From Somniosus microcephalus (Eukaryota), in the NCBI GenBank assembly GCA_052327205.1, contig CM126207.1, positions 62,310,001 through 62,374,000 on the forward strand: a stretch of 64,000 bases of DNA, read 5' to 3'. Positions 28,816-54,006 of this stretch are shown piece by piece (the stretch's first letter is position 1; each line of letters opens with the position of its first letter). Below the pieces are notes generated by a model. It was not told where the DNA came from. It was given only the letters and a program-made list of their open reading frames with translations, and did not search any database. A program made the position numbers and the translations under genes.

Positions 28816-30537
28816 TTTTTTTTCCTTTTGAGTAGATTGATGATTTTTTGATTAATAAAAGATTTGATTCTGTAAACTTATTTTCAGCAGTATTGTGCTG
28901 GAAAAAATACAGAGCTAGAGATTCACAGTACTGTAATTGTTTTTATTTTGGTGCTGAAATGCTACTGCAAGACTGAGGTGGGAGCGCTTTTGTGTTTTCA
29001 AACTTTGTACAACAGTGCATCAGTTGCCTTGGATGTATAGCTGAACATGGCCTAGATCCTTACAATAGCTGTTGGTTGCAATATGGAAATAGGTTTTACC
29101 TTCACTAGGGATTGTAGACATATTTGTAAAGAGTTAAATTTTGACCCTTGGAATAACTTGAGTGTTTTCATCGCCCTTGGGAGTGCTTATTTCAACTGCA
29201 GAAAATGGTTTAGACCTTAAAATTGCTATTTGCGACTGAGTTGGGGAACACTTCTACTCCTACAAGTCCTTAGGCTAAAAGTAAACTAGCATTTTTAAAT
29301 GCACTAACAAGTCTTCTAAATGTTATTTCCCAGCAGAGCTTTGCTCTTTCTCCCCCCCCCCCCCCCCACCCCCACCACCAATTGAATACTTCATTTAAAA
29401 TTTCAGCAAAAGGCGGAAATTGTGCTCTAGGAAGTTGACACTTTAAAATGTACCTTTGACTTCTTTGGCATGGAGAAAGATCATACAGTCACAGCTCGGC
29501 TTCCAGTCATGTGTTTAGTTATTTGTTTGAACATTTCTTCATGCTTGCTTGGTTCATTTCAAACGCTATTCACTTTGATTAGAAGTGGCAGTTCCAGTGC
29601 TCCAGTGGCTCCATCTCAAGTCATTTATTCAGAACAATGGTCTTAAATTGGCCTATGTTGAGGATATGTTTTATGGATTGCGTTTAAAACAGCGCACTCA
29701 AAGAATTGAAAAGAGTGATTGTGTTAGGTGTTAGAAAGAAAAATGAGACTTACTTTTCATATTATAAAGATCACAATTGGAAGGAGAAGGGCTCAGAAGA
29801 AGCTGGGAAAAGTATCTGGTTACTTCATAGGTGAGCTATTAATAATAACTATGGTTTCTTAATGCACAACTGTCTACGGTAATTTAATGCAGTAGTTAAG
29901 CTGGGTTTGTGGCCATCCCCAACTGGAACTGGATGATGGCTGCTAAACAGGACTACTCATTCCTTTTGGGTGGTGGCAAATTCTTGGTGTTGTCTTTATT
30001 TGTGCAAGTACATCTGACTTTGCAGGAAGCTTGAATCAAAGTATCTCCAGTGTAAAGCACAAAATGGACCTATGCTAAGCGTATTTAGTTCTTGCTATCC
30101 AGGTACAGTACTGATTTACTTCATGTACCATTTTTGCCCAGTACCTCCAGCACAGGATATTGTGGGTAGTTTTAAAGAGTCTACACTACACAATAACAGT
30201 GGAGTCATGTCTTTATAATAAATGATCGGTTTTAAGTGACTGTTGTGGGCCTGCTCTACAACAGCCAGTGGTTTGAAGTTGGTACCTGTGTAGGACAGTT
30301 TGAATTGGCAGCATTCTTTTATTTTGGTTGCTGCACATTGCTCCCTGATCAGGGAAAGTGGATTCTCTGCACATGAAAATTTGCATTGCAAACACAGGAA
30401 TCTGAAAGCAGGTTAAATTTTTTGATGTTTCTGAAGAGCTGACCTGCATCATTGGTAACAATTTAAAAAAAAAAAACATATTTTCATGGGATGGGTGCTG
30501 GAGATTATATTGCTGGAGAATGGAATACTTGCCATTG

Positions 30538-31681
30538 TGAAAGGATAATTACTAGTCCTAGCCCCTTTAAGGCTACCCCAGATCAGGCGTATTCCTCAGA
30601 TGTTCACTTTCAACTAAAGTTTGAGGTAGCCGAATCCTAAAGAGGCTTAATTTGGTCTAAAGGTCCGGACTATCTCTCCCTAAAGGAAAGGAACAACTTG
30701 AAAATGTTACCGTCCTCCAGATAGCACTTTTAATAAGTTTAGCAGACTGTAACATTCTGGGTATTATGAGGGTCTGGAAAACTCCCCCAGAATTCTGCAA
30801 CTCCTCACCAAAGAGTGTACAGTGATTGAGTTCGCGAGTTTGATACAGAAGTATTATGTGAGACAATTCTAAAAATATATAGATTTATTAAAGAACCGAT
30901 ATATACTTTACAGTTGGTGAGTCAATCGCAACATTAACAGTTCCAAAAAGAGAGAGCTTTACAATCTTATCAGAGATCCTTACTGTCAAATCTTAACTTC
31001 GCTAGTTTTACAGTTCTTAAAGTTTATTCAGGATATCCACCAAAATCAAATACAGTACCTTGATCCCCGGGGTACAAAGATTTGTAGATGTACAGAGCTA
31101 GCTCTGAAACCGAGAGTCGCTTTGCCCCTTTAAGCGAGTCTATTATCCCATTTGAGAGTTCAATATTCATACCCTTTCCCAGTAGTATTTCCTTTAATGT
31201 TTTCTGCTGATGTAAGCTAATTATCTCTAGTCTTGTTCCCAAAGATTCAGATTTCAGGAGCCTTTAACCTTCTGTTTCAATAAGGTTATTGATTCAGTGT
31301 CAACAACTTATCTTATCTTTGATGCGCTATCAATTACTCATAAAAGACTGAGAGTTAAGAGAGTAACTAAAGGCTTTTTATTAACAAAAGAATGAAGGTC
31401 TGCCTCGAGTGGTCGACCGGTCCAGAAATACAAAGGGCTGGGGAGCAGTCACCTTTATACTAGGACTTGTGGGAGGAGTCAGCCGAGGCATGTCCAGGCA
31501 TGTACACAGTGGAATACAAACAGTGGTTTACCACAATCTTAATAGCCAGAATGCTATCACAGCTTTTTCATCATTAGGTTTCTAGATTTCCAGACCCAGT
31601 TTGTCATGTTTTAATAAGGCCAGAATTCTTTCATAGAATGGTGTATTTTTCTGAATAGGTTATATTGCTTATTCCTTCACA
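30538..31681 (-). repeat. 3' LTR of the provirus (lacks ~215 bp of U3 and carries a nested solo LTR)
   Basis: About 12 substitutions and 1 indel versus the 5' LTR in the first ~290 bp by manual count. Segment ~33766-33980 is missing here. Preceded on the minus strand by the PPT. Confidence 0.95.
31320..31535 (-). mobile_element. Solo LTR (216 bp, Gypsy-like) nested in the proviral 3' LTR
   Basis: TG..CA termini and a 5-bp TSD ATCTT (31315-31319, 31536-31540). Minus-strand TATAAA followed by AATAAA. Absent from the 5' LTR. Confidence 0.9.
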
Positions 31682-31691
31682 CCCCACTCTT
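31682..31691 (-). promoter_or_regulatory. Polypurine tract (AAGAGTGGGG) abutting the 3' LTR
   Basis: Plus-strand ccccactctt lies immediately inside the LTR-initial TG. Confidence 0.8.
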
Positions 31692-31976
31692 GACCAAAAA
31701 TGAACTGCAGCATCAAGACAGAGTTTGGTCAATGTTACTAATAAGGTTGCAATAGCACGTTAATTTCACGAGCCTAATCATGTGTTACATGAAAATTCCT
31801 TTTAAGGCATCCCAGGACAATGTTTTGCCTTATTTTAAATTGAACACAAATTAAAAGGATGATAGGTATATTGTCATGCAATTAGCGAAATAACATGTAC
31901 TTAGAATGTCCAATTGGCATATGTACGTTCCGTAGAGGTGAGTTATTCATACGAGTCAAGGAGATGTCATTTGGAA

Positions 31977-32303
31977 CTAGCTGAAGCTTGACACATTGTT
32001 GCAGTGATCCAGTGTGAGGACAGATTCTTGTTTTCGTAAAGGCCTTGCCAGGAGCTCAGTTGATTCCTTCTCCACCCGCAGTGTTTTCCTCCTTCGTTGA
32101 AGTAACTCATTGATCTTTACTTGTTTTGGTTGTGACATTTTGCGAATCCAATTCCTGAGGTGTTGCCAAGCATCGTATGGAGGAGTCGGCGACACCGTCT
32201 GGCAGACCATCGTCAGTAGTTCGATCGCATCCATTTCCTGTGTCGTGCTCCAAGCTGGGTCTTGAAAGACAGTGTACGACTGCACCTTGTATTGTTCCTC
32301 CAT
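31977..32303 (-). pseudogene. ORF at the env position, overlapping the pol 3' end (candidate Env leader remnant)
   Basis: 108-aa ATG-initiated ORF starting just after TVSIDNLK and overlapping the pol frame until its stop at 32107. The assignment is positional only. Confidence 0.4.
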
Positions 32304-33048
32304 TTCGGTATCCCGCAGGGCATCTTTTGAGATTGTCTATGGAGACAGTTTTAAGAATATGCTTGCCATTCAACTGGTTAATATGTATTTTAACTGTTCT
32401 TTCGTTAATAACACAATGTATTTGAACAGGTTTTTGCTCGCACTTTTCCTGTACCCATTCTCCTGCTAGGGGTTGCCATGCTTTGTTTGTAGATTTTTTT
32501 TCTGCCTATTTGCCTCCCTTATCCTCTGTTACTACTTTTTAAAAATCTAACTGTCGGGTCAAGGAATCAGAGTGTAGAGGCAATAAAAGAACCAAGGGTA
32601 AGCGTTGTATGCATCTCAACCCCATACATCAGATAATATGGAGTTTTAGGGGACACTGTCCCTGATGCAGATGCGGGCACATTATTAAGTGATAGCTGCA
32701 CCTCCGGAATGACTTATTTCCCCTGATTCTCAACAGTTTGACCAATAGCTTTTTTACTTCCTGGTTTTTATGTTCCACCAGCCCCGCTGATTGCTGATGA
32801 CGTGGCGTGCTGTGCTCTAACCCAATCCCCCTTTGTTCGCAGTAGTCTTTGAAGACCTTGGAGACAAAGGCTCTGCCTTGATTGGAGTGTAAGATTTTGG
32901 GTACACCAGCTACAGTAATTATGTCAGTAATAGCATTGGCGAGTGCGTTTTCCGACACAGTTTTTGTGGGGACCAGCCAGCAGAAGGAAGTGCATCCATC
33001 TACAAGATGGATATAGATATAAATATAAGTACTGTATAGGGTTCTGTA
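32107..33048 (-). pseudogene. pol: Integrase (catalytic core plus C-terminal domain) of pol, frameshifted, foamy-virus-like
   Basis: Minus-strand blocks in order: YIYIYIHLVDGCTSFCWLVPTKTVSENA; VPKILHSNQGRAFVSKVFKDYCEQRGIGLEHSTPRHQQSAGLVEHKNQEVKKLLVKLL; frameshift, IPEVQLSLNN..KTPYYLMYGVE; frameshift, WQPLAGEWVQEK..KPVQIHCVINERTVKI..KTVSIDNLK. The first catalytic Asp region is deleted and the second Asp is replaced by Asn. Confidence 0.9.
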
Positions 33049-33064
33049 TCAACTCATTAACACA

Positions 33065-33078
33065 CACGTTGGGCGCCA
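33065..33078 (-). promoter_or_regulatory. Primer-binding site, tRNA-Lys1,2 type
   Basis: Minus strand reads TGGCGCCCAACGTG (14 nt of the canonical TGGCGCCCAACGTGGGGC), 2 nt (GT) downstream of the LTR-terminal CA. Confidence 0.9.
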
Positions 33079-33080
33079 AC

Positions 33081-34210
33081 TGAAAGGATTATTACTAGTC
33101 CTAGCCCCTTTAGGGCTACCCCGGATCAGGCGTATTCCTCAGATGTTCACTTTCAACTAAAGTTTGAGGTAGCCGAATCCTAAAGACGCTTAATTGAGTC
33201 TAAAGGTCCGGACTATCTCTCCCTAAAGGAAAGGAACAACCTGAAAATGTTACCGTCCTCCAGATAGCACTTTTAATAAGTTTAGCTAGAATGTAACGTT
33301 CCGGATATTATGAGGGTCTGGAAAACTCCCCCAGAATTCTGCAACTCCTCACCAAAGAGTGTACAGAGATTGAGTTTGATACAGAGTATTATGTGAGACA
33401 ATTTAAAAAATATATAGATTTATTAAAGAACCGACATATAATTTACAGTTGGTGAGTCAATCGCAACATTAACAGCTCCAAAAAAAGAGAGCTTTACAAT
33501 CTTATCAGAGATCCTTACACTCAAATCTTAACTTCGCTACAGTTTTACAGTTCTTAAAGTTTATTCAGGATATCCACCAAAATCAAATACAGTACCTTGA
33601 TCCCCAAGGTACAAAGATTTGTAGACTTAGAGCTAGCTCTGAAGCCGAGAATCGCTTTGCCCCTTTAAGCGAGTCTATTATCCCATTTGAGAGTTCAATA
33701 TTTATACCCTTTTACAGTGGTATTTCCTTTAAGGTTTTCTGCTGATGTAAGCTAATTATCTCTAGTCATTTTTCTGCTGACCCCTGCAGTTCTTAGTCAC
33801 CTCAGCTGGTAGCACTACAGAACCATGTCTCCTCTCTAGGTGTTCTAAATTTATCATAAAAAATGGCATAACAGCAGGTGCACTCCACCCGGTATCATCT
33901 TTACGAAGGCCGATGTTTGTTACTTTTATGTGCTTCTTTACGAGGTGTAAATTAGAACACCTTGTACCGGGTAACTATTGTCTTGCTCCCAAAGATTCAG
34001 ACTTCAGAAGCCTTTAACCTTCTGTTTCAATAAGGTTATTGATTCAGTGTCAACAACTTATCTTATCTCTATAGCCAGAATGCTATCACAGCTTTTTCAT
34101 CGTTGGGTTTCTAGATTTCCAGACCCAGTTTGTCATGTTTTAATAAGGCCAGAATTCTTTCATAGAGTGGTGTATTTTTCTGAATAGGTTATATGGCTTA
34201 TTCCTTCACA
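33081..34210 (-). repeat. 5' LTR of the provirus (1130 bp)
   Basis: Direct repeat of 30538-31681. On the minus strand it begins TGTGAAGG and ends CCTTTCA, with the PBS adjacent. Confidence 0.95.
33560..33706 (-). promoter_or_regulatory. Candidate LTR TATA box (33701-33706) and poly(A) signal (33560-33565; alternative at 33419-33424)
   Basis: Minus-strand GGGTATAAAT followed ~135 nt later by AATAAA. The TATA is mutated to TATGAA in the 3' LTR copy. Confidence 0.5.
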
Positions 34211-36081
34211 ATTGTAAGCATCATGCACTCCCAGTTAAGATATAATGCAGTTAGATGCATAGTAAAGCTCCATTCATTTGTTCTGCCTTAACATTTCACT
34301 TAGAACCTCACAGAACTGATGGAGCAGGTTTTTTACTGGGTAAGATTTGAATCAAGATCCCGGAGCTGAAAGGATTTAATCCAATACACCACCCAATTTT
34401 CTCAAAGATTTAAGTGTAAGTAGTTGCTTTGCACTATTTTCAGTGCAAGATGCAAAGCTGAAGTGTTATGAGGCTACTTCGTTGAGGTACGCTTGTCAGA
34501 ATTTGATCTAATCAGTTTGGTGACTTGAATCCGCAGCCATCCTTCAGGTTTTGTCAATTCAATATGAAACTTGCATCTGAGCAAGAACTGGTATAACTGG
34601 ACTTGATTCTCCTGCATATTATCCCAATAAATAAAATTGGGGGCACATTAAAATATGCTGTAAATAGTTGATGAAATGTTATGCAAGGTACCTGTAGGCT
34701 AAACATCAAATACATTAACTCATTTTGAATGTGTTTAATTTAAGCACCAATATGTGTAAATTGCAGGATTAAAGTTTTAACTTCATCATCACTGGTCCAA
34801 AATAAGTAGTTACTTGTTTACCTGCCTAATGACCTGCCTTTGTTGCTCTTATATTTCATGTAAATTGTATATGCTGCTTTAACTCTGCACTAATGTTGCC
34901 CAGCAATCTTTCACGTCACGAATGCTTAAGTCTTCTATATAGTGTACATTTATTGAGACTGCATAATACTGCTGAAAGACTATGGTGGCAATTTGCACAT
35001 TTAAGTAAGCAAGTATTTAGAAAGATAATTGCTGAAAAATGAATTGTTGCTTGATCCAAAAAGGGAATTGTCACCATTGAATCTGAGTTGTTAACAAAGC
35101 TAGAGAAACTGCAATTATCTAAACTCTCTTCCACGTGCCACCCATGGCCGAAAGGGCAGATTCGGCCTTTGTCAATGCTCAGGCACTTTTACTTTGAGAG
35201 AGTGCCATGAATGGCAGACATGCGATTTTCTTGTCAATGGTAATCTCAAATATAAAGGACCCAATCTCTGGAGTTCCAAGGGTATTGCATACCCAGATTT
35301 CTGTGAGCCATATGAGCTGCTGTTGGAAGTAAAGCTTCCTGTTTTAGCCTGCTAAATGCACAGAGCTGCTGCAGTGTACCTGGGTTCTTGCTTTATGCCG
35401 CTATTTTGCATCATGATGGATCGAGATACTTCAAGTGGTTTCCCAACCCTGCTATTTATATGGACGGGTGCATGATTCAGACAGCTTATGCTCCAGCTGA
35501 AAGAGGCATTTACTGAGCAGTGGCTCTTCTAAAAGTGCTGAGGATGAAAGTGAGGACATTAAATGGTCAAAAAGGTTTATTTACAATGCTCAAAATCCAG
35601 GATGTACCTATCATGACATCCCTACCCACCCATCTATCTACATGTATATGGAACGGCAAGGTTTGCGGACATGCACGTAGCACAGTCCACGGGAAGAAAA
35701 CTGCGAATTGAAATGATACCAACCAAAGTAAACGGTAGAGAATGATCATCAGTTTTGGTTTAAGTGTTGCTCTCCCAAGACTCCAACTTAAACGTAGACG
35801 TGTCAATATTAAGTTTGGTGCCAGAAAATGCATACTAGTAGTCCATCAACCACTCTCCCTGCAACTCTTGCGATTCAAACAGACTTTTGCTCTAGTGTTC
35901 CAATTAACTGTTGCGAAAACTTGATTTAGGTAATTTAAAAAAAAAGGAAATGTATATCCGGTTTCATAATGTGATAATACTGAAAGATCCCCTGTGACAT
36001 TGCCTATAGCAAGTGCGAAGGTATGGTGTTTTGGAAGAAATTTTGGTTTGGTGTAGCATTCATTACTGTAGGTGAGATGAT

Positions 36082-36859
36082 GGCCGGATTTTGCAATCAG
36101 CAGCGAAGGAATGACGCTCGCCATTCACCTCTCCGACAGCGGCCCACAAAGATTTGACCGGCTTTAGAGCGCAGACTTCCAGTCATCAGGCTTCTGTTCC
36201 AGTGCGGCGCCCTCTACAGGGATCTGTGGTGTCTTTGGCTAGGGCAAGAAACAATGAGGCGCTTTAACCAATCAGATTGAAGAATCCTCACTGAGACACG
36301 CAGAGTCCAAACCATGAAGTATAAATTAGATTTAAAAGATGTAGAGAAAGCAAAATAAAGATTGGGAAATACAGATGGGATAATGGGAGTGAGATAAAGA
36401 AAAACAGACAAAGTTTAAAAAAAAATGTAATTAAAATTTTTTAAAACAATCTTGCAATATAAATGTTCTTAGGGAATGAGACTCTACACGTGTAAAATTA
36501 ATTTTTCAGGGCCGGAGAGTTTAAGCAGTAATTATCACTTCTTATGTCGTTAGCTCACTCACTCCTGAATGCACTAGCCCTAACTTTTCCAGCCGTCTTT
36601 AGTGCGGAACTAGTGGGCAAGTACAGCAAGTTCACGCCATTAGTGATTTCAATGCTGAGTTCACACCATTAGTGATTTGAATGCCGAGTCTATCAGCGAG
36701 GACTGCAACAGCACACCCTATGGAGGAGCAGGGTATCTCTGACAGCAACTTCTGGATTTCCAAGTTTAACTGCGCATGTGTCGACCCCATAAGTTGCTGT
36801 AAGATAATAATGGCGACACTGGTAGCCTCACTGCTGTTATTACAGCAAAAATCTGGGCC
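36082..36859 (+). mobile_element. MITE family B copy (PIF/Harbinger-like)
   Basis: TIRs ggccggattttgc / gcaaaaatctgggcc. Homologous in inverted orientation to 56283-57008. Contains a 29-bp tandem duplication at 36629-36686. Confidence 0.7.
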
Positions 36860-38574
36860 AATGTAATTGTGGGGATCGATTATTTGGCTGAAAGAATTTG
36901 ATAAGGGTGTAGGATACATTAAGTGGGTTGGGATAGTTGTGCTTATTAGGGATTTAAAAGATAGTGTGGAACATCTATGTGGGAATAAAAAAATTATAGT
37001 GTGGACCAGGTGTTTGGGTGGAAGAGGCACAGAGGAGAAGCAAATAGAACCGTGACTAATGGGAATTTTTTTTAATAAGCAGGAGGTAAAGGTATTTAAT
37101 AAAAGCGGCAACAGGAACGAGAAAAAATTAACCAGAACCGGGGCAGGAAATTTTAAAAAAATGCGATAAAGCTGCACTGAGGTGTTAAGAGCCGAGCCAT
37201 GTGACAACTGAAAGTCGTGGTGCCAGAAAAGAAAAGAAAGACACAAAAAGAGGAGGTTTAGCATGGGGCCAGATAATCAGGAAAAAAAGCCAAAAAGATG
37301 TTGAGACCTGGGACAGAACATAAAGAACTGGTGGGGGGGGGGGGGGGGGAAGGAGAGTGGAGGTTAAGTGAATTAAGAAAAAAAGGGGATTACTGGTAAT
37401 TCAAGGAACAAGCTGGGAACTAGGCAAACAAAGCTTTACCAGAGTTGGTATTCAGATGTTGCAGGGCAGAGCAAAGAGCAGGGCCCGGAAGTGGAACATT
37501 TTTTTTGGGGGGTGCATGAGCATGAATGGGGCTAGATGCCAAAAGAACTTCAAATGACGGTGGGAGCCAGGTCAGGGTTCGAGGTGTCAGTTGATAGGCT
37601 GTAAGGTCGAATGAGGAATGAAACTGGGATACACTGATGTTTTTCAGTGTTTTTTCTCTCTCGGATCCGAGGATGTGGGAGACTGGGGGTTGGGACTGAG
37701 TGCAGCAGTGCTTATCTATTGCCCAGAAACCTGCAATTACAGTATGGCGGGCAGATAGGATTTTGCCAATATAAAAAGTTAAGATGCAATTTTTCATTTT
37801 ATATCAACGTACCAAAGTTTATATAAAGTGTGACTCAAAAATAGTGACTCGAAGTAGGTTTAATGTGGACAAGTAGTGCGTCACTTAAAAATTTGTAGTG
37901 TGTGGTTTACTCAATAAATTCTTTATATTTCAATATTCAGTACAAGCTAGTCGATAGTGTGCCCTTTAATGATTTACTTGGCTACTTTTTGTTGAGCCCA
38001 AACTGTTAATTCAATGTTTTAAAGGTATTTTAAAAGTATGAGTTTGTCTGAGGTCTTTACTCAATCTAATTTTATTCAAACCACTCTGTAATCTGACTTT
38101 ATTTTACCATATAACACAACCTCTAAGAAAAGGATACCCTGATTTGCTATGATGAAATAATTATAAATAGAATGTTTTAAATCTGTATTTTGAAGCTTTT
38201 GAGAACGATTCGCCATTGTGATGGCTGTTTCAACAGGAGATCTTTCTCTCTATTGTTTCCACACCACAATCAAAGGAGAGTTTCTCAAAAGGTGAAACGT
38301 TTTTAACGAGGTGTATTTGACCCCTTGCGACCATCTCTTTGGAAGAGTAATAAAGACCTGTTCTGTTTACTATCTATAATTAGTGAAATGGAAATGAGTA
38401 TAGTTGTGGAAGCCAAACACAGTAGTAAGAAATTCTTCCATTATTATAACAGCAAGAAGGTTATCACAAAATAATTGAGATGCCTTATGGATGCAAAGAA
38501 GGTTGAAACTGGATAGTTTTTACAGCGCGGATAGTGCGTAATAAGTTGAAGTTCATATCAAATCACTTTGTGTT

Positions 38575-41707: not shown

Positions 41708-43135
41708 CAACAACAGCAAGTATTTATATAGCGCCTTTAACGTAGTAAAATGTCTCGAGGCGCATGACAGGAGTGTTTGAAGACAAAAATTTGACACCGA
41801 GCCACTTAAGGAGTGGCTTGGTCAAAGAGGTAGGTTTTAAGGAGTGTTTTAAAGGAGGATAGAGGCAGAGAGGTTTAGTGAGTGAGTTTCAGAGCTTGGG
41901 GCTTAGGCAGCTGAAGGCACGGCCACCGATGGTTGAGTGATTATAATCAGGGATGCTCAAGGGCAGAATTAGAGGATCGCAGATACCTCGGGAGGGTTGT
42001 AGGGCTGAAGGAGATTAGAGATTGGGAGGGGCGAGGCCATGGAAGGATTTGAAAACAAGGATGAGAATTTTGAAATCGAGGCGTTGCCTAACCGGGAGCC
42101 AATGTAGGTCAGCGAGCACAGGGGTGATGGGCGAACGGGACTTGGTGCGAGTTAGGACACTGGCAGCCGAGTTTTGGATAACCTCAAGTTTACATAAGGT
42201 AGAATGTGGGAGGCCAGCCAGGAGTGCGTTGGAATAGTCAAAAGTCTAGAGGTAACAAAGGCATGGATGAGGGTTTCAGCAGCAGATGAGCTGAGGCAAG
42301 GGTGGAGATGGGCAATGTTACGGAGATGGAAATAGGTGGTCTTAGTTATGCTGCGGATGTGTGGTCGGAAGCTCATTTCAGGGTCAAATATGACACCAAG
42401 GTTGCAAACAGTCTGGTTCAGCCTCAGACAGATGCTAAGGAGAGGGATGAAGTTGTTGGCTAGGGAACGGAGTTTGTGGTGGGGACCGAAGACGATGGCT
42501 TCGGTCTTCCCAATATTTAATTGGAGAAAATTTCTGCTCATCCAGAACTGGAAGTCGGACAAGTAGTCTGACAATTTAGAGACAGTGGAGGGGTCGTGAG
42601 AAGTGGTGGCGAGGTAGAGCTGGGTGTCGTCAGCGTACATGTGGAAACTGACTCTCTGTTTTTGGATGATGTCGCCAAGGGGCAGCATGTAGCTGAGAAT
42701 TAGGAGGGGGCCCAGGATAGATCCTTGGAGGAACTTTAAAGGTAACGATGCGGGAGCAGGAAGAGAAGCCGTTGCAGGTGATTTTCTGGCTGCGATTAGA
42801 TAGAAAAGAAGGAACCAGGCGAGTGCAGTCCCACCTGGCTGGATGACGGTGGAGACACATTGGAGGAGGATGGATGATCAGCCGTGTCAAAGGCTGCAGA
42901 CTGGTCTAGAAGGACGAGGATGGATAGTTTACCTTTGTCACAGTCACAGAGGATGTCATTTGTGACTTTGATAAGAGCCATTTTGGTACTGTGGCAGGGG
43001 TGGAAACCTGATTGGAGGGATTCAAATATGGAATTCCGGGAAAGATGTGCATGAATTTAGGAGGCAACAACACGTTCAAGGACTTTGGAGAGAAATGGAG
43101 GTTGGAGATGGGGCGGTAGTTTGCAAGGACAGAGG
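41708..43135 (-). mobile_element. L2-clade LINE, 5'-truncated, RT pseudogene
   Basis: ORFs ALIKVTNDILCDCDKGKLSILVLLDQSAAFDT and MLPLGDIIQKQRVSFHMYADDTQLY..FLQLNIGKTEAIVFG..AETLIHAFVTSRL. Frameshifts present; ends in a (TTG)n tail. Confidence 0.92.
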
Positions 43136-44519: not shown

Positions 44520-46960
44520 CTGCTGTCATCTCCATCAATGTAGCCCCAAAACAGCGGCGGCAACAGAAACAATGCTGCAGGAAAACTAACGCTGGAGCAC
44601 TCAAAGACCCTGCTAAGAAAGCCCTATTCAGCCTGTGCCTCACAAACAACCTGACGACTCCCAGTGATGCAGAGACACAGAGTGCCCACAGCACCTGGCC
44701 TGCACTCAAGGCCTCCATAATCAGCACCCGTGAAGAGACGCTCGGTCACTCGACCAGGAAACACCAAAACTGGTTCGACGAGAACGACCAGGAGATCCAG
44801 GAGCTAATAAGTCGCAAGCGCAAAACATTCCTGATCTGGAAACAGCAACAGAACTCGAGAGCAAGAACGCAGCTCCACAGAAGCCTGAAGGCCAAGGTCT
44901 AACAAAAAACTCGCGACCTAAAGAACAGATGGTGGGTGGAGAAAGTGCAGGAGATCCAGCAGCTAGCCGACAACCAAGACGTGCGTGGATTTTTTAGCGC
45001 AGTCAAGACCATCTACGGCCCAAGGCCCTACCCCACTGCGGGCCAAGAACGGAGAGGTACTCATCAAGGACAGAGAGGCAGTCAGTGCCCGCTGGAAGGA
45101 GCACTTCGAAGATCGCCTTAACCGCGACTCTGTCTTTGACGCGAGTGTCCTCAACTCCATCCCACAGCATGATACCCGCCACCATCTCAGCACACCACCA
45201 GCCCGGCATGAGGTTGAAAAGGCCATCCGACAACTGAAGAACAACAAGGCCTCAGGAGCAGATGGAATCCCCGCCGAGGCACTAAAGCATAGCGGAGAAG
45301 CACTACTGGCGCGAATTCATGAACTAATTTCTCTTATCTGGAAGGAGGAGAGCATGCCAGGGGATCTGAGACGCTGTAATTGTGACCATCTTCAAGAAAG
45401 GTGACGAGTCCGATTGCAGTAATTACAGAGGAGTTTCCCTGCTGTCTGCCACAGGGGAAAGTCATCGCAAGAATCCTCCTCAATCGCCTCCTCCCAGAGT
45501 CACAATGTGGATTCCGTCCACTAAGGGGCACAATGGACATGATCTTCACCACACGTCAATTACAAGAGAAATGCAGGGAACAGCATCAACCGCTGTACAT
45601 GGCCTTCTTTGATCGCACAAAGGCCTACGACACTCAACCGTGAGGGATTATGGAGTGTCCTCCTCAAATTCGGCTGCCCTCAAAGATTTGTCACAATCCT
45701 CCGCCTGCTTCACGACGACATGCAAGCTGTGATCTTGACCAACGGTTCCACCACAGACCCAATTCACATACGAACTGGGGTCAAACAAGGCTGTCATATC
45801 GCACCAACGCTCTTCTCGATCTTCCTTGCTGCAATGCTCCATCTCACCCTGAGTAAGCTCCCCGCTGGAGTGGAGCTAATTTACAGAACAAACGGGAAAC
45901 TGTTCAACCACCGTCGCCTCCAGTCCAGATCCAAGGTCGTCCCATCCTCTGTCGTCGAATTACAGTATGCAGACGACGCTTGCGTCTGTGCTCACTCGGA
46001 GGTTGAATTCCAAACCATCGTCGGCACCTTCACCGAAGCGTACGAGAGCATAGGCCTTATACTAAACATCCGTAAGACAAAGGTCCTCTACCAACCTGCC
46101 CCCGCCACACAGTACTGCTCCCCGATTATCAAAATCCACGACAAGGCCTTGGACAATGTGGACTACTTTCTATACCTCGGGAGCCTACTGTTAACGAGGG
46201 CAGACGCCGACGACGAAGTCCAACACCGCCTTCAGTGTGCCAGTGCAGCCTTCGGTCGCCTGAGGAAGAGAGTGTTTGAAGGCCAGGACCTCAAACCTGG
46301 CACTAAGCTCATGGTCTACAGAGCAACAGTGATACCCGCCCTGCTATATGCCTCAGAGACATGGACCATGTGCAGCAGGCACCTCTAAGCACTGGCGAGG
46401 TACCACCAACGCTGCCTCCGCAAGATCCTGCAAATCAGTTGGCAGGATAGACGCATCAACGTCCATGTTCTTGCTCAGGCCAACATCGAATCTTTGATCA
46501 CGCTCAATCAGCTCCGATGGACGGGTCACATTGTCCGCATGCCCGATAACGAGACTCCCAAAACAAGCGCTCTACTTGGAGCTCCGGCACGGCAAGAGAG
46601 CCCCAGGTGGGCAGAGGAAACACTTTAAGGACACCCTCAAAGCCTCCTTGAAAAAGTGTAACATCCCCATCGACACCTGGGAATCCCTGGCCCAAGACCG
46701 CACAAAGTGAAGGAGAAGCATCTGGGAAGGCGCCGAACACCTCGAGTCTCTTTGCCGGGAGCAAGCGGAAGCCAAGCGCAAACAGCGGAAGGAGTGCATG
46801 TCAACCCAAGCACCCCACCTACCCGCCCCTTCTACCACCATCTACCTGACCTGTGACGGAGACTGTAGGTCCCGGATTGGACTCATCAGTCACCTGCGAA
46901 CTCCTTTTTAATGTGGAAGCAAGTCATTCTCTGTTCCGAGGGACTGCCTAAGAAGTAAGA
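44520..46960 (+). mobile_element. RTE-clade (BovB-like) LINE, 5'-truncated, frameshifted ORF
   Basis: NWFDENDQEI, RWKEHFE, KNNKASGADGIPAEALK, LLPESQCGFRPLRGTMDMIF, TGVKQGCHIAPTLF, LQYADD and YASETWT motifs across ORFs 44486-46388. The 3' end is cgagggactgcctaagaag. Confidence 0.92.
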
Positions 46961-52159: not shown

Positions 52160-54006
52160 TTACAGTTATGTGAAGAGAAAAAGATTGGTGAAGTCAAGCG
52201 TAGGTCCCTTGCAGTCAGAATCAGGGGAATTTTATAATGGGGAACAAAGAAATGGCAGACCAGTTAAATACATATTTTGGTTCTGTCTTCACAAAGGAGG
52301 ACACAAATAACCTCCCAGAGATGTCGGGGAACATAGGGTCTAATGAGAGGGAGGAACTGAAAGAAATCAGTATTTGTAGGGAAATGGTGTTAGGAAAATT
52401 GATGGGATTGAAGGCCGACAAATCCCCAGGGCCTGATAATCTACATCCTAGGGTACTTAAGGAAGTGGCCCTGGAGATAGTAGATGCATTGCTGATCATC
52501 TTCCAACATTCGATGGAATCTGGAACAGTACCCATGGATTGGAGGGTAGCTAATGTTACCCCACTATTCAAAAAAGGTGGTAGAGAGAAAACGGGGAATT
52601 ACAGACCGGTAAGCCTGACATCGGTAGTGGGGAAAATGCTAGAGTCCATTATAAAAGATGTAATAGCAGAGCACTTGGAAAACAGTGACAGGATCGGACA
52701 AAGTCAACATGGATTTACAAAAGGTAAATCATGCTTGACTAATCTACTGGAATTTTTTGAGGATGTAACTGGGAGAATAGATAAGGGAGAACCAGTGGAT
52801 GTGGTGTATTTGGACTTTCAGAAGGCTTTCGATAAGGTCCCGCATAAGAGATTAGCGTGTAAAGTTAAGGCACATGGGATTGGGGGCAAGGTATTGACTT
52901 GGGTAGAGAACTATTTGGTAGACAGAAAGCAAAGAGTTGGAATAAACGGGTCTTTTTCCGAGTGGCAGGCAGTGACTAGTGGGGTACCGCAGGGATCAGT
53001 CCTTGGACCCCAGCTATTCACAATTATATATTAATGATCTAGACAAGGGAACTAGATGTAATATCTTCAAGTTTGCAGACGACACAAAGCTGGGTGGGCG
53101 TGTGTGCTGTGAGGAAGATGTCAAGAAACCCCAGGATGATTTGGACAGGTTGGGAGATTGGGCAAAAGCATGGCAGATACAATATAACGTGGATAAATGC
53201 GAGGTTATCCACTTTGGTGGCAAAAACAGGAAGGCAGATTATTATCTGAATGGCAATAGATTGGGAGAAGGGGAAGTGCAACGAGACCTGGGTGTCCTTG
53301 TGCACCAGTCGCTGAAGGTAAGCATGCAGGTGCAGCAGGCGGTTAAGAAGGCAAATGGGATGTTGGCCTTTGTAGCGAGAGGGTTTGAGCACAGGAACAA
53401 GGATGTCTTGCTCCAGTTGTATAGGGCCTTGGTGAGACCACATCTTGAGTATTGTGTGCCGTTTTGGTTGCCTTATCTAAGGAAGGATGTTCTTGCCATG
53501 GAAGGAGTTCAGTGAAGATTCACCAGACTGCTACCTGGGATGGCAGGAATGACGTATGAGGAGAGATTGGGTCGATTGGGCTTGTACTCGCTGGAGTTTT
53601 GAAGAATGAGAGGGGATCTCATTGAAACTTATAAAATTCTGACAGGACTGGACAGACTAGATGCAGGAAGGATGTTCCCGATGGTCGGGGAGTCCAGAAC
53701 CAGGGGTCACAGTCTAAGGATAAGGGGTAGGCCATTTAGGACAAAGATGAGGAGGAATTTCTTCACCCAGAGAGTGGTGAACCTGTGGAATTCTCTACCA
53801 CAGAAGGCAGTAGAGGCCAATTCATTAAATATATTCAAGAAGGAGTTGGTAATATTTCTTAAGGCTAAAGGGATCAAGGGGTATGGGGAGAAAGCGGGGA
53901 CCGGGTACTGAATTTGGATGATCAGCCATGATCGCATTGAATGGCGGAGCAGGCTCGAGGGGCCGAGGGCCTACTCCTGCTCCTATCTTCTATGTTTCTA
54001 TGTTTC
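52160..54006 (+). mobile_element. CR1 LINE, 5'-truncated, relatively young RT pseudogene
   Basis: ORFs 52237-53034, 52979-53515 and 53606-53911 contain KSPGPDNLHPRVLKE, GNYRPVSLTSVVGK, YLDFQKAFDKVPH, SGVPQGSVLGP and FADDTKLG. One frameshift and two premature stops. Tail (ttctatgt)n. Possible TSD tatgttt at 52153-52159 and 53999-54005. Confidence 0.95.

Follow-up and report, generated by a model that had tools for sequence, protein, structure and literature searches.

What kind of retrovirus left the minus-strand remnant near the middle of a 64-kb stretch of Somniosus microcephalus DNA (assembly GCA_052327205.1, contig CM126207.1, positions 62,310,001 to 62,374,000; hereafter the window), and how did its family multiply in the genome? 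An earlier note, made from the letters of the window, had read the locus as an endogenous foamy-like virus, and we regard this identity as practically certain. The locus belongs to a large family of endogenous retroviruses (ERVs), and most of the internal copies examined share one and the same deletion of env. The history that we consider probable is that of a foamy-like virus which lost env and then multiplied by intracellular retrotransposition.

The foamy-like provirus of the window is a 3.7-kb remnant on the minus strand, with only 1.4 kb between its two long terminal repeats (LTRs). Its parts, several of them recognised by comparison of the two LTRs or with sister copies elsewhere in the genome, are the following.

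30534 to 30537, no strand: left target-site duplication (TSD), ATTG, from the sequence.
30538 to 31681, minus strand: 3' LTR, TG...CA, without a 215-nt segment present in the 5' LTR (LTR comparison).
31315 to 31540, minus strand: inside the 3' LTR, nested solo LTR of an unrelated family, TG...CA at 31320-31535 (216 nt), plus its own 5-bp duplication ATCTT.
31682 to 31691, minus strand: polypurine tract (PPT), with the GGGG/TG border at 31682/31681, a motif described in PMC5210030.
31692 to 31994, minus strand: 3' side of the env deletion, sequence found after env in env-bearing sister loci (sister comparison).
31995 to 32025, minus strand: env-deletion junction, common to most internal copies examined (sister comparison).
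32025 to 32303, minus strand: env 5' stub, with its ATG at 32303, in the +1 frame and overlapping the integrase tail (sister comparison).
32107 to 33004, minus strand: broken integrase (IN) remnant, made of a catalytic core (rve, like the IN of prototype foamy virus, PFV) and a C-terminal SH3-type domain with TVSIDNLK.
33005 to 33064, minus strand: short leader remnant, fused by a copy-specific deletion to the IN core (sister comparison).
33065 to 33078, minus strand: primer-binding site (PBS), a 14-nt match to the foamy Lys1,2-type PBS, 2 nt past the LTR.
33081 to 34210, minus strand: 5' LTR, TG...CA, 1130 nt (LTR comparison).
34211 to 34214, no strand: right TSD, ATTG, from the sequence.

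Most of the outline drawn in the earlier note was recovered, namely two LTRs of about 1.1 kb (860/899 aligned bases the same, Kimura two-parameter distance, K2P, 0.045), the ATTG duplication, whose 4-bp length is a family trait, a PBS placed 2 nt from the LTR end and a PPT ending in GGGG/TG. The PBS matches the foamy one over 14 of 18 nt; these 14 nt are the first 14 of the PBS in 6/6 exogenous foamy genomes, and the same 14-mer occurs nowhere else in the window. The last 4 nt mismatch in this copy and in 8/8 family copies scored, so that the primer may have been a variant tRNA or one pairing over a shorter stretch; the PBS is of what we take to be the Lys1,2 type, and the window contains no tRNA gene. 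The four hallmarks on which the note had relied are all present, but they are not each diagnostic, since 4-bp TSDs are also made by gammaretroviruses and a Lys PBS is also found in most class III ERVs (PMC5210030).

The integrase blocks reported by the note are indeed foamy-like, in a domain that is no longer intact. The top PDB matches of the core are to PFV IN (E 1e-26, versus 1e-6 for the IN of human immunodeficiency virus, HIV, and human T-lymphotropic virus, HTLV), and PFV IN is the sole, weak PDB match of the C-terminal piece (E 0.023), in an alignment that includes TVSIDNLK. The second catalytic acid residue is lost, stops are present, and frameshifting indels lie near 32712, 32572, 32532 and 32501 in comparison with one sister copy. 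The IN sequence starts near 33004, at the deletion that joins the leader to the IN core, and not at 33048 as first proposed; this deletion begins about 75 nt past the 5' LTR and was seen in none of the sisters fetched. With gag, protease (PR), reverse transcriptase (RT), RNase H (RH), the IN N-terminus and most of env gone, the window locus is a dead, doubly deleted provirus, an inert fossil. Substitution rates borrowed from other work (0.5e-9, PMC10699275; 2.2e-10, PMC4422223) would give this copy a rough age of about 45 or 102 million years. In protein searches, none of the 61 candidates found with the window IN piece was a close relative, and RH-IN gave three weak matches and no close relative.

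The genome-wide LTR search suggested in the note gave 6,096 first-look candidates and showed that the locus is one deleted copy of a large family and not a rare provirus. Further searches yielded 1,966 candidates for the IN-to-PPT region, 929 for the leader and 772 for gag/PR/RT; these totals are first-look tallies and not copy numbers, 40 candidates having been scored in each of the LTR, IN-to-PPT, leader, gag/PR/RT, env and junction searches. A Gag family search gave 452 candidates, and all 150 scored exceeded the cut-off. The 20 LTR matches fetched were all solo LTRs, each with distinct flanks and its own TSD (exact over 4 bp in 15, with one mismatch in 4 and two mismatches in 1), and GGG precedes the LTR start at 15/19 sites. 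Across 16 copies the LTR-pair divergence ranges from 0.027 to 0.087, which, together with the varied TSDs, indicates separate integrations over time.

The long copies have the layout LTR-leader-gag-pol-430-nt tail-PPT-LTR, with LTRs of 1.1-1.3 kb, and carry what the window copy has lost. Gag_FV_central was over the cut-off in 3/3 central gag pieces (E 1e-13 to 1e-15), the best PDB match of the family Gag was PFV Gag, and a CCHC knuckle was found in 0/9 copies. Spuma_A9PTase was over the Pfam cut-off in the sister copies L005 and L055 (E 1.7e-9), as were RT, tether, retroviral RNase H, IN and SH3_11 in sister pol. The family PR-RT matched foamy Pol at E 1e-99 with 37-41% identity, versus E 1e-32 for Ty3 and 1e-29 for murine leukaemia virus (MLV). 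Thirteen short copies share one common 5' junction, a deletion from the leader to RNase H that leaves a 2.7-kb internal region without gag, PR and RT; such copies show that trans-mobilisation happened. A long internal region in L014 and long open reading frames (ORFs) in L001, L011, L008 and L006 were rejected as nested Gypsy or LINE (long interspersed element) insertions, and a second open frame in gag was rejected when codon-position counts gave it no support.

In the careful RT tree (24 rows), the foamy clade has a support of 99/98, and within it the family joins the mammalian viruses, Pleurodeles, the protein P0039 and a Scyliorhinus torazame gene model, P0047, at 91/87 (not starred). The teleost-type elements and a second S. 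torazame model, P0073, make up a separate clade (97/96), and forcing the family with the teleost-type elements was rejected by the approximately unbiased (AU) test (p 0.0022, for a group named after the tree had been seen). The Callorhinchus protein P0040, 35% identical to the family, lies at the base without firm placement, outside the family's group. A quick 53-row RT tree agrees, with 100 for the foamy clade. In a quick IN tree, from which four rows dropped out, the window IN grouped with the mammalian viruses and P0039 at 99, away from Gypsy and the class I and III outgroups; an IN phylogeny of the kind proposed in the note came out on the foamy side. The window IN core is 46-51% identical to the mammalian foamy viruses and P0039 and 21-27% to teleost-type IN. 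By these sequence comparisons, the family is placed inside the foamy clade, nearer to the mammalian and salamander viruses than to the teleost ones.

Two of the neighbours in the tree deserve a description of their own. P0047 has a tetrapod-side foamy-like RT, 42% identical to the family, joined to a PRDM11-like domain in what is probably an annotation chimera; the PRDM11-like stretch of the S. torazame gene model matches the S. microcephalus genome over 190 residues at 80% and over another 66 at 89%, which speaks for a cartilaginous-fish host other than S. torazame, in a comparison made without an outgroup control. P0039 is a single ORF of 1687 aa with about 520 residues ahead of a foamy-like PR-RT-RH-IN-SH3_11 and an N-terminus without clear Gag match, and is possibly a second foamy-like element with a fused Gag-Pol. 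At least three foamy-like lineages seem to be present in sharks.

The arrangement of gag and pol sets the family apart. In mammalian foamy viruses, Pol is made from a spliced RNA, with its own start and in another frame (PMC3185757, PMC8278194), and the overlapping gag/pol layout was found in six foamy virus genomes. In the family, gag and pol lie in the same frame in 23/32 copies, the other nine being shifted by private indels of varied size, and 28/32 copies have no Met between the gag/pol border and the protease DTG. An in-frame stop stands at the border in 20/32 copies, including 2/2 of the env-bearing copies that cover it, and is far commoner than other stops (the next one, 6/16); it may be either a programmed stop or a hot spot of decay. 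The copies without it are scattered and form no clade, in a poorly resolved tree with nine changes. A hairpin after the border is mildly stable, 27/300 shuffles and 14/1058 windows folding equally well, and as support for read-through it is weak. Five apparent stop hot spots at L047 4901-5015 were rejected, being due to a frameshift in the yardstick copy. A Gag-Pol fusion produced by read-through has, in our estimate, an even chance of being right, a single open gag-pol frame is doubtful, and splicing of Pol to an upstream ATG is doubtful to the same degree. The separate pol start in another frame, a hallmark of Spumaretrovirinae, is lacking in most copies of the family, which we therefore file as a foamy-like ERV and not as a strict member of the subfamily.

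That the family never had an env was rejected once PF03408 found env beside family pol. The Foamy_virus_ENV profile matched 14/15 candidates, at about ten places (E 2e-25). Seven fetched env stretches have family pol upstream of env, at 82-91% identity, and in five stretches the tail or LTR of the family follows env. In the window copy, the 430-nt tail is the env 5' end fused to the sequence preceding the PPT; neither the env stub nor the tail matched anything in Pfam or the PDB when searched alone, and their identity came only via the sister loci. Compared with the Env N-termini of two env-bearing loci, the stub shows 63% and 65% identity, and it ends before the hydrophobic stretch that these loci have near Env residue 114. 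Its ATG (32303) stands 23 nt past the IN DNLK motif in the +1 frame, the distance being 17-20 nt, also +1, in 6/6 exogenous foamy viruses. The Env leader of the env-bearing loci has two tryptophans, with a spacing unlike the WXXW Gag-binding motif, and R-X-[KR]-R furin-type sites were present in 2/6 of the env loci scanned, all six of which are broken. About 0.6 kb separate the end of env, itself about 3 kb, from the PPT; in the degraded env loci scanned, this interval has no ORF above about 85 codons and TATAA is scattered through it.

The env deletion is widespread. A probe spanning the main junction returned 829 candidates, of which 40/40 scored cross it; with a 2-kb probe from env there were 54 candidates, and the 40 scored included long matches at 10 loci. 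Nine further loci keep a 200-300-nt env piece and represent a second env-deletion variant (for example L035; C3:114.47 Mb, C9:180.89 Mb and C8:136.59 Mb). Among 40 copies picked by their IN core or gag/PR/RT, without regard to the tail, 22 had the main junction, one the second variant and none a full env, the other 17 being uninformative.

We then looked at substitutions in 20 env-deleted long copies with PR-RT, counting as shared the non-CpG changes found in at least three copies. Shared changes fell on third codon positions in 21/31 cases in PR-RT (p 9e-5) and 25/49 in RH-IN (p 0.008), and private changes were even over the codon positions (280/281/282), a pattern that implies purifying selection on pol between integrations and neutrality afterwards. 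Pol among the env-deleted copies thus stayed under purifying selection, as expected for mobility in cis. Of 20 sequencing runs listed as matching, none of them RNA, four were used, from organisms A to D, and contigs from 4/4 span the env junction. In organisms B and D the flank is identical to that of the window; they may be its source and are not independent samples. In A and C, sequence orthologous to the left flank is about 4-5% divergent, and the contig departs exactly at the LTR edge. The left flank alone suggests that the site is empty in A and C; if it is, the env deletion would be older than the host split, with env-deleted copies inserting later.

Such copying without env has a known basis in foamy viruses. 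Foamy capsids without Env cannot bud and reverse-transcribe in the producing cell, and env-deficient PFV vectors re-integrate; a 2011 review treats natural foamy intracellular retrotransposition, as opposed to an artefact of env-deleted vectors, as an open question (PMC3185757). Under the history that we favour, an infectious foamy-type virus (LTR-gag-pol-env-LTR) would have entered the germ line, where about ten loci retain much of env, and a single deletion would have removed nearly all of env in one lineage, which went on copying. Its Env-less capsids, unable to bud, would reverse-transcribe in the producing cell and could re-integrate; env-deleted gag-pol copies would have moved in cis and mobilised shorter copies in trans, among them the 2.7-kb-internal form and probably the window copy. 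Most insertions would later have collapsed to solo LTRs. The window copy may have integrated roughly 45-100 million years ago, by the borrowed rates, and then received the nested LTR insertion and the frameshifts.

Several observations weigh against this history. The first look was stricter in the family search for env than in the others, and the count of env loci is a floor; the 40 copies tested were chosen by similarity to env-deleted queries, which favours env-deleted matches, and 17 of them say nothing on env. Gag shows no third-position signal (1/3 changes), and the short-form control (7/15 at third positions, p 0.2) is too small to show neutrality. The selection signal could be partly older than env loss, given recombination with env-bearing helpers. 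An open gag or pol was found in 0/12 long copies listed, leaving present activity unsupported, and feline foamy vectors gave no detectable retrotransposition (PMC3185757, PMC3705263), so that the property is not general. The closest competitor is reinfection with a helper, in which env-deleted genomes would have been packaged and passed from cell to cell with Env made by env-bearing proviruses or by a circulating virus. Such complementation in trans is an accepted route (PMC10435555), the genome does contain env-bearing members of the family, the short copies show that mobilisation in trans took place, and cis selection on pol fits both routes and does not exclude this one. The env-bearing loci are, however, few and more diverged (82-91% identity) than the env-deleted copies (92-95%), and the two that can be placed branch apart from the env-deleted copies (96/95, in a tree rooted on one of the two); we hold reinfection with a helper to be rather unlikely. 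Multiplication mainly by segmental or tandem duplication of the host is very improbable. It would account for the four copies on C10 that are nearly identical and spaced by about 52 kb, and for repeated matches on C13 and C18, where evenly spaced copies with near-identical scores (C10:72.26-72.43 Mb, C13:48.3-48.9 Mb, C18:21.3-21.5 Mb) point to host tandem duplications, but the different flanks and own TSDs of 20/20 solo LTRs largely refute it as the general route, copies lie on many contigs, LTR-pair divergences vary and the shared pol changes are biased to third positions.

The foamy assignment itself has to be weighed against a lokiretrovirus, an ERV-L/SnRV-type class III element or a Gypsy element with convergent PBS and TSD. 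Gag and pol in one frame are also seen in the class III XtERV-S (PMC8278194), and the trees, which include Pleurodeles gene models, hold no named CoeEFV, NviFLERV, reptile, bird, lokiretrovirus, ERV-L or SnRV reference. Against this stand the foamy-specific Gag, A9 protease and Env profiles, all over cut-off, the foamy clade of the RT tree and the grouping of IN with the mammalian foamy viruses (SH-aLRT, an approximate likelihood-ratio branch test, 99), which together bear out the assignment made in the note. The lokiretrovirus Env resembles a paramyxovirus fusion protein (PMC7947760), whereas the family Env matches Foamy_virus_ENV and exogenous foamy Env, although no search was aimed at the lokiretrovirus family itself; a tether and a second, retroviral RNase H exclude an ordinary Ty3/Gypsy element, from which RT and IN also lie apart. 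A non-foamy origin is barely credible. A quite different objection is that the family is already described, as ERV-Spuma.0-Sca or under some name in a repeat library or supplement. ERV-Spuma.0-Sca is a foamy-like ERV from the shark Scyliorhinus canicula, counted at 293 elements and annotated with its gag and pol in a single frame (PMC10699275), and in these traits resembles the family. It differs by its 866-nt LTRs and 1.3-kb ORF at the env position, by having no detected Gag or Env domain, both of which the family has, and by its grouping with the teleost foamy-like ERVs, the grouping which the AU test, subject to the same caveat, rejected for the family; the two are set apart by description and not by alignment. 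Five short family motifs were missing from the PMC10699275 supplement, a weak negative in a text broken into short lines. That the family has been described before appears unlikely, if less so than reinfection with a helper.

Foamy-like ERVs of cartilaginous fish are known from Callorhinchus and S. canicula, and the family is not a first; the note's suggestion of an undescribed elasmobranch lineage has to be narrowed accordingly, an elasmobranch element being already published (ERV-Spuma.0-Sca, PMC10699275), to a lineage that appears distinct and whose life history seems undescribed. The literature covered, which lies outside most subscription journals, Repbase and Dfam, describes neither an env-deleted foamy-like expansion nor this lineage, and we think it likely that the family is undescribed. 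With the mammalian foamy viruses (PFV and the simian, bovine and feline viruses SFV, BFV and FFV) it shares the Gag central domain, the A9 protease, the order RT-tether-RNase H-IN, the SH3_11 tail, the foamy Env, the +1-frame env ATG after DNLK, the PBS 2 nt past the LTR, GGG/TG, the 4-bp TSD and the absence of CCHC. Unlike theirs, its gag and pol occupy a single frame, and a start codon for pol is missing from most copies; no accessory ORF could be recognised past env, before the LTR, in its degraded copies, its PBS matches over 14 nt only, and the majority of its copies are env-deleted. CmiFLERV of Callorhinchus milii is likewise a foamy-like ERV of a cartilaginous fish, described from pol only and basal to the tetrapod and lobe-fin foamy viruses (PMC5512871); P0040 is not shown to be a named CmiFLERV. 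CoeEFV, the salamander NviFLERV and the tuatara ERV-Spuma-Spu have, as the family does, a recognisable foamy Env (and Gag, in amphibian endogenous foamy viruses), but they are described as full-length with env, and the accessible text of these descriptions reports no shared env deletion, whereas the family is mostly env-deleted. Re-integration had been proposed earlier to explain why the tuatara and coelacanth elements are so numerous (PMC6669660). In its env loss, large amplification and non-autonomous derivatives the family resembles env-less superspreaders such as ERV-L. ERV-L is described as env-less (PMC8278194); unlike it, the family has a foamy Gag, protease and Env, and its env-bearing parents persist in the same genome. 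Env-less ERVs in general were reportedly presented as superspreaders by Magiorkinis et al. in 2012.

Some further observations concern the surroundings. The nested 216-nt LTR belongs to a younger family, with 95-98% identity elsewhere, that is abundant in the sequencing runs of organisms B and D and nearly absent from those of A and C; it also matches L022, and L109 has two matches about 4.1 kb apart and may hold a two-LTR copy. Within the window, four ORF pieces matching RVT_1, one of them below cut-off (42155-42877 on the minus strand, 45543-46385 and 52204-53512 on the plus strand), are probably decayed LINE-type elements, and a 29-nt tandem repeat at 36629-37276 accompanies a 214-codon stop-free minus-strand frame without Pfam match. 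Elsewhere in the genome, two family LTRs lie 14.3 kb apart in the same orientation at C8:222044750-222060039. Exons like a PR/SET domain match by the dozen, clustered on C12 at about 184-227 Mb and also on C37 and C38, which suggests a large tandem expansion of a PRDM-type gene.

In its boldest form, the proposal is of an undescribed, tetrapod-side shark foamy lineage with foamy Gag, A9 protease and Env and a Gag-Pol fusion (by read-through or in a single frame). After a single env deletion it would have become a germ-line retrotransposon that stayed active while its hosts speciated and built up internal copies of the order of a thousand, with LTRs in the thousands; taken as a whole, this is a tentative picture, a little short of an even chance. 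The published foamy-like ERVs of cartilaginous fish are pol-only or teleost-like (PMC5512871, PMC10699275), and a lineage that comes from a shark, has foamy Gag and Env and falls with the tetrapod viruses is relevant to the choice between co-divergence and cross-class jumps. It may bear on a deep marine origin of retroviruses, the point raised in the note, but its closeness to tetrapod viruses could also stem from a cross-class jump. An in-frame gag-pol so close to the mammalian foamy viruses would help to date a defining feature of the subfamily, and the separate spliced pol of the mammalian viruses would, if the proposal is true, be a later trait. The family would then also be the first example from nature of a foamy element retrotransposing within cells on a large scale without env, and with env-bearing parents and an env-deleted radiation in one genome, the retrotransposition question becomes testable from sequence alone.

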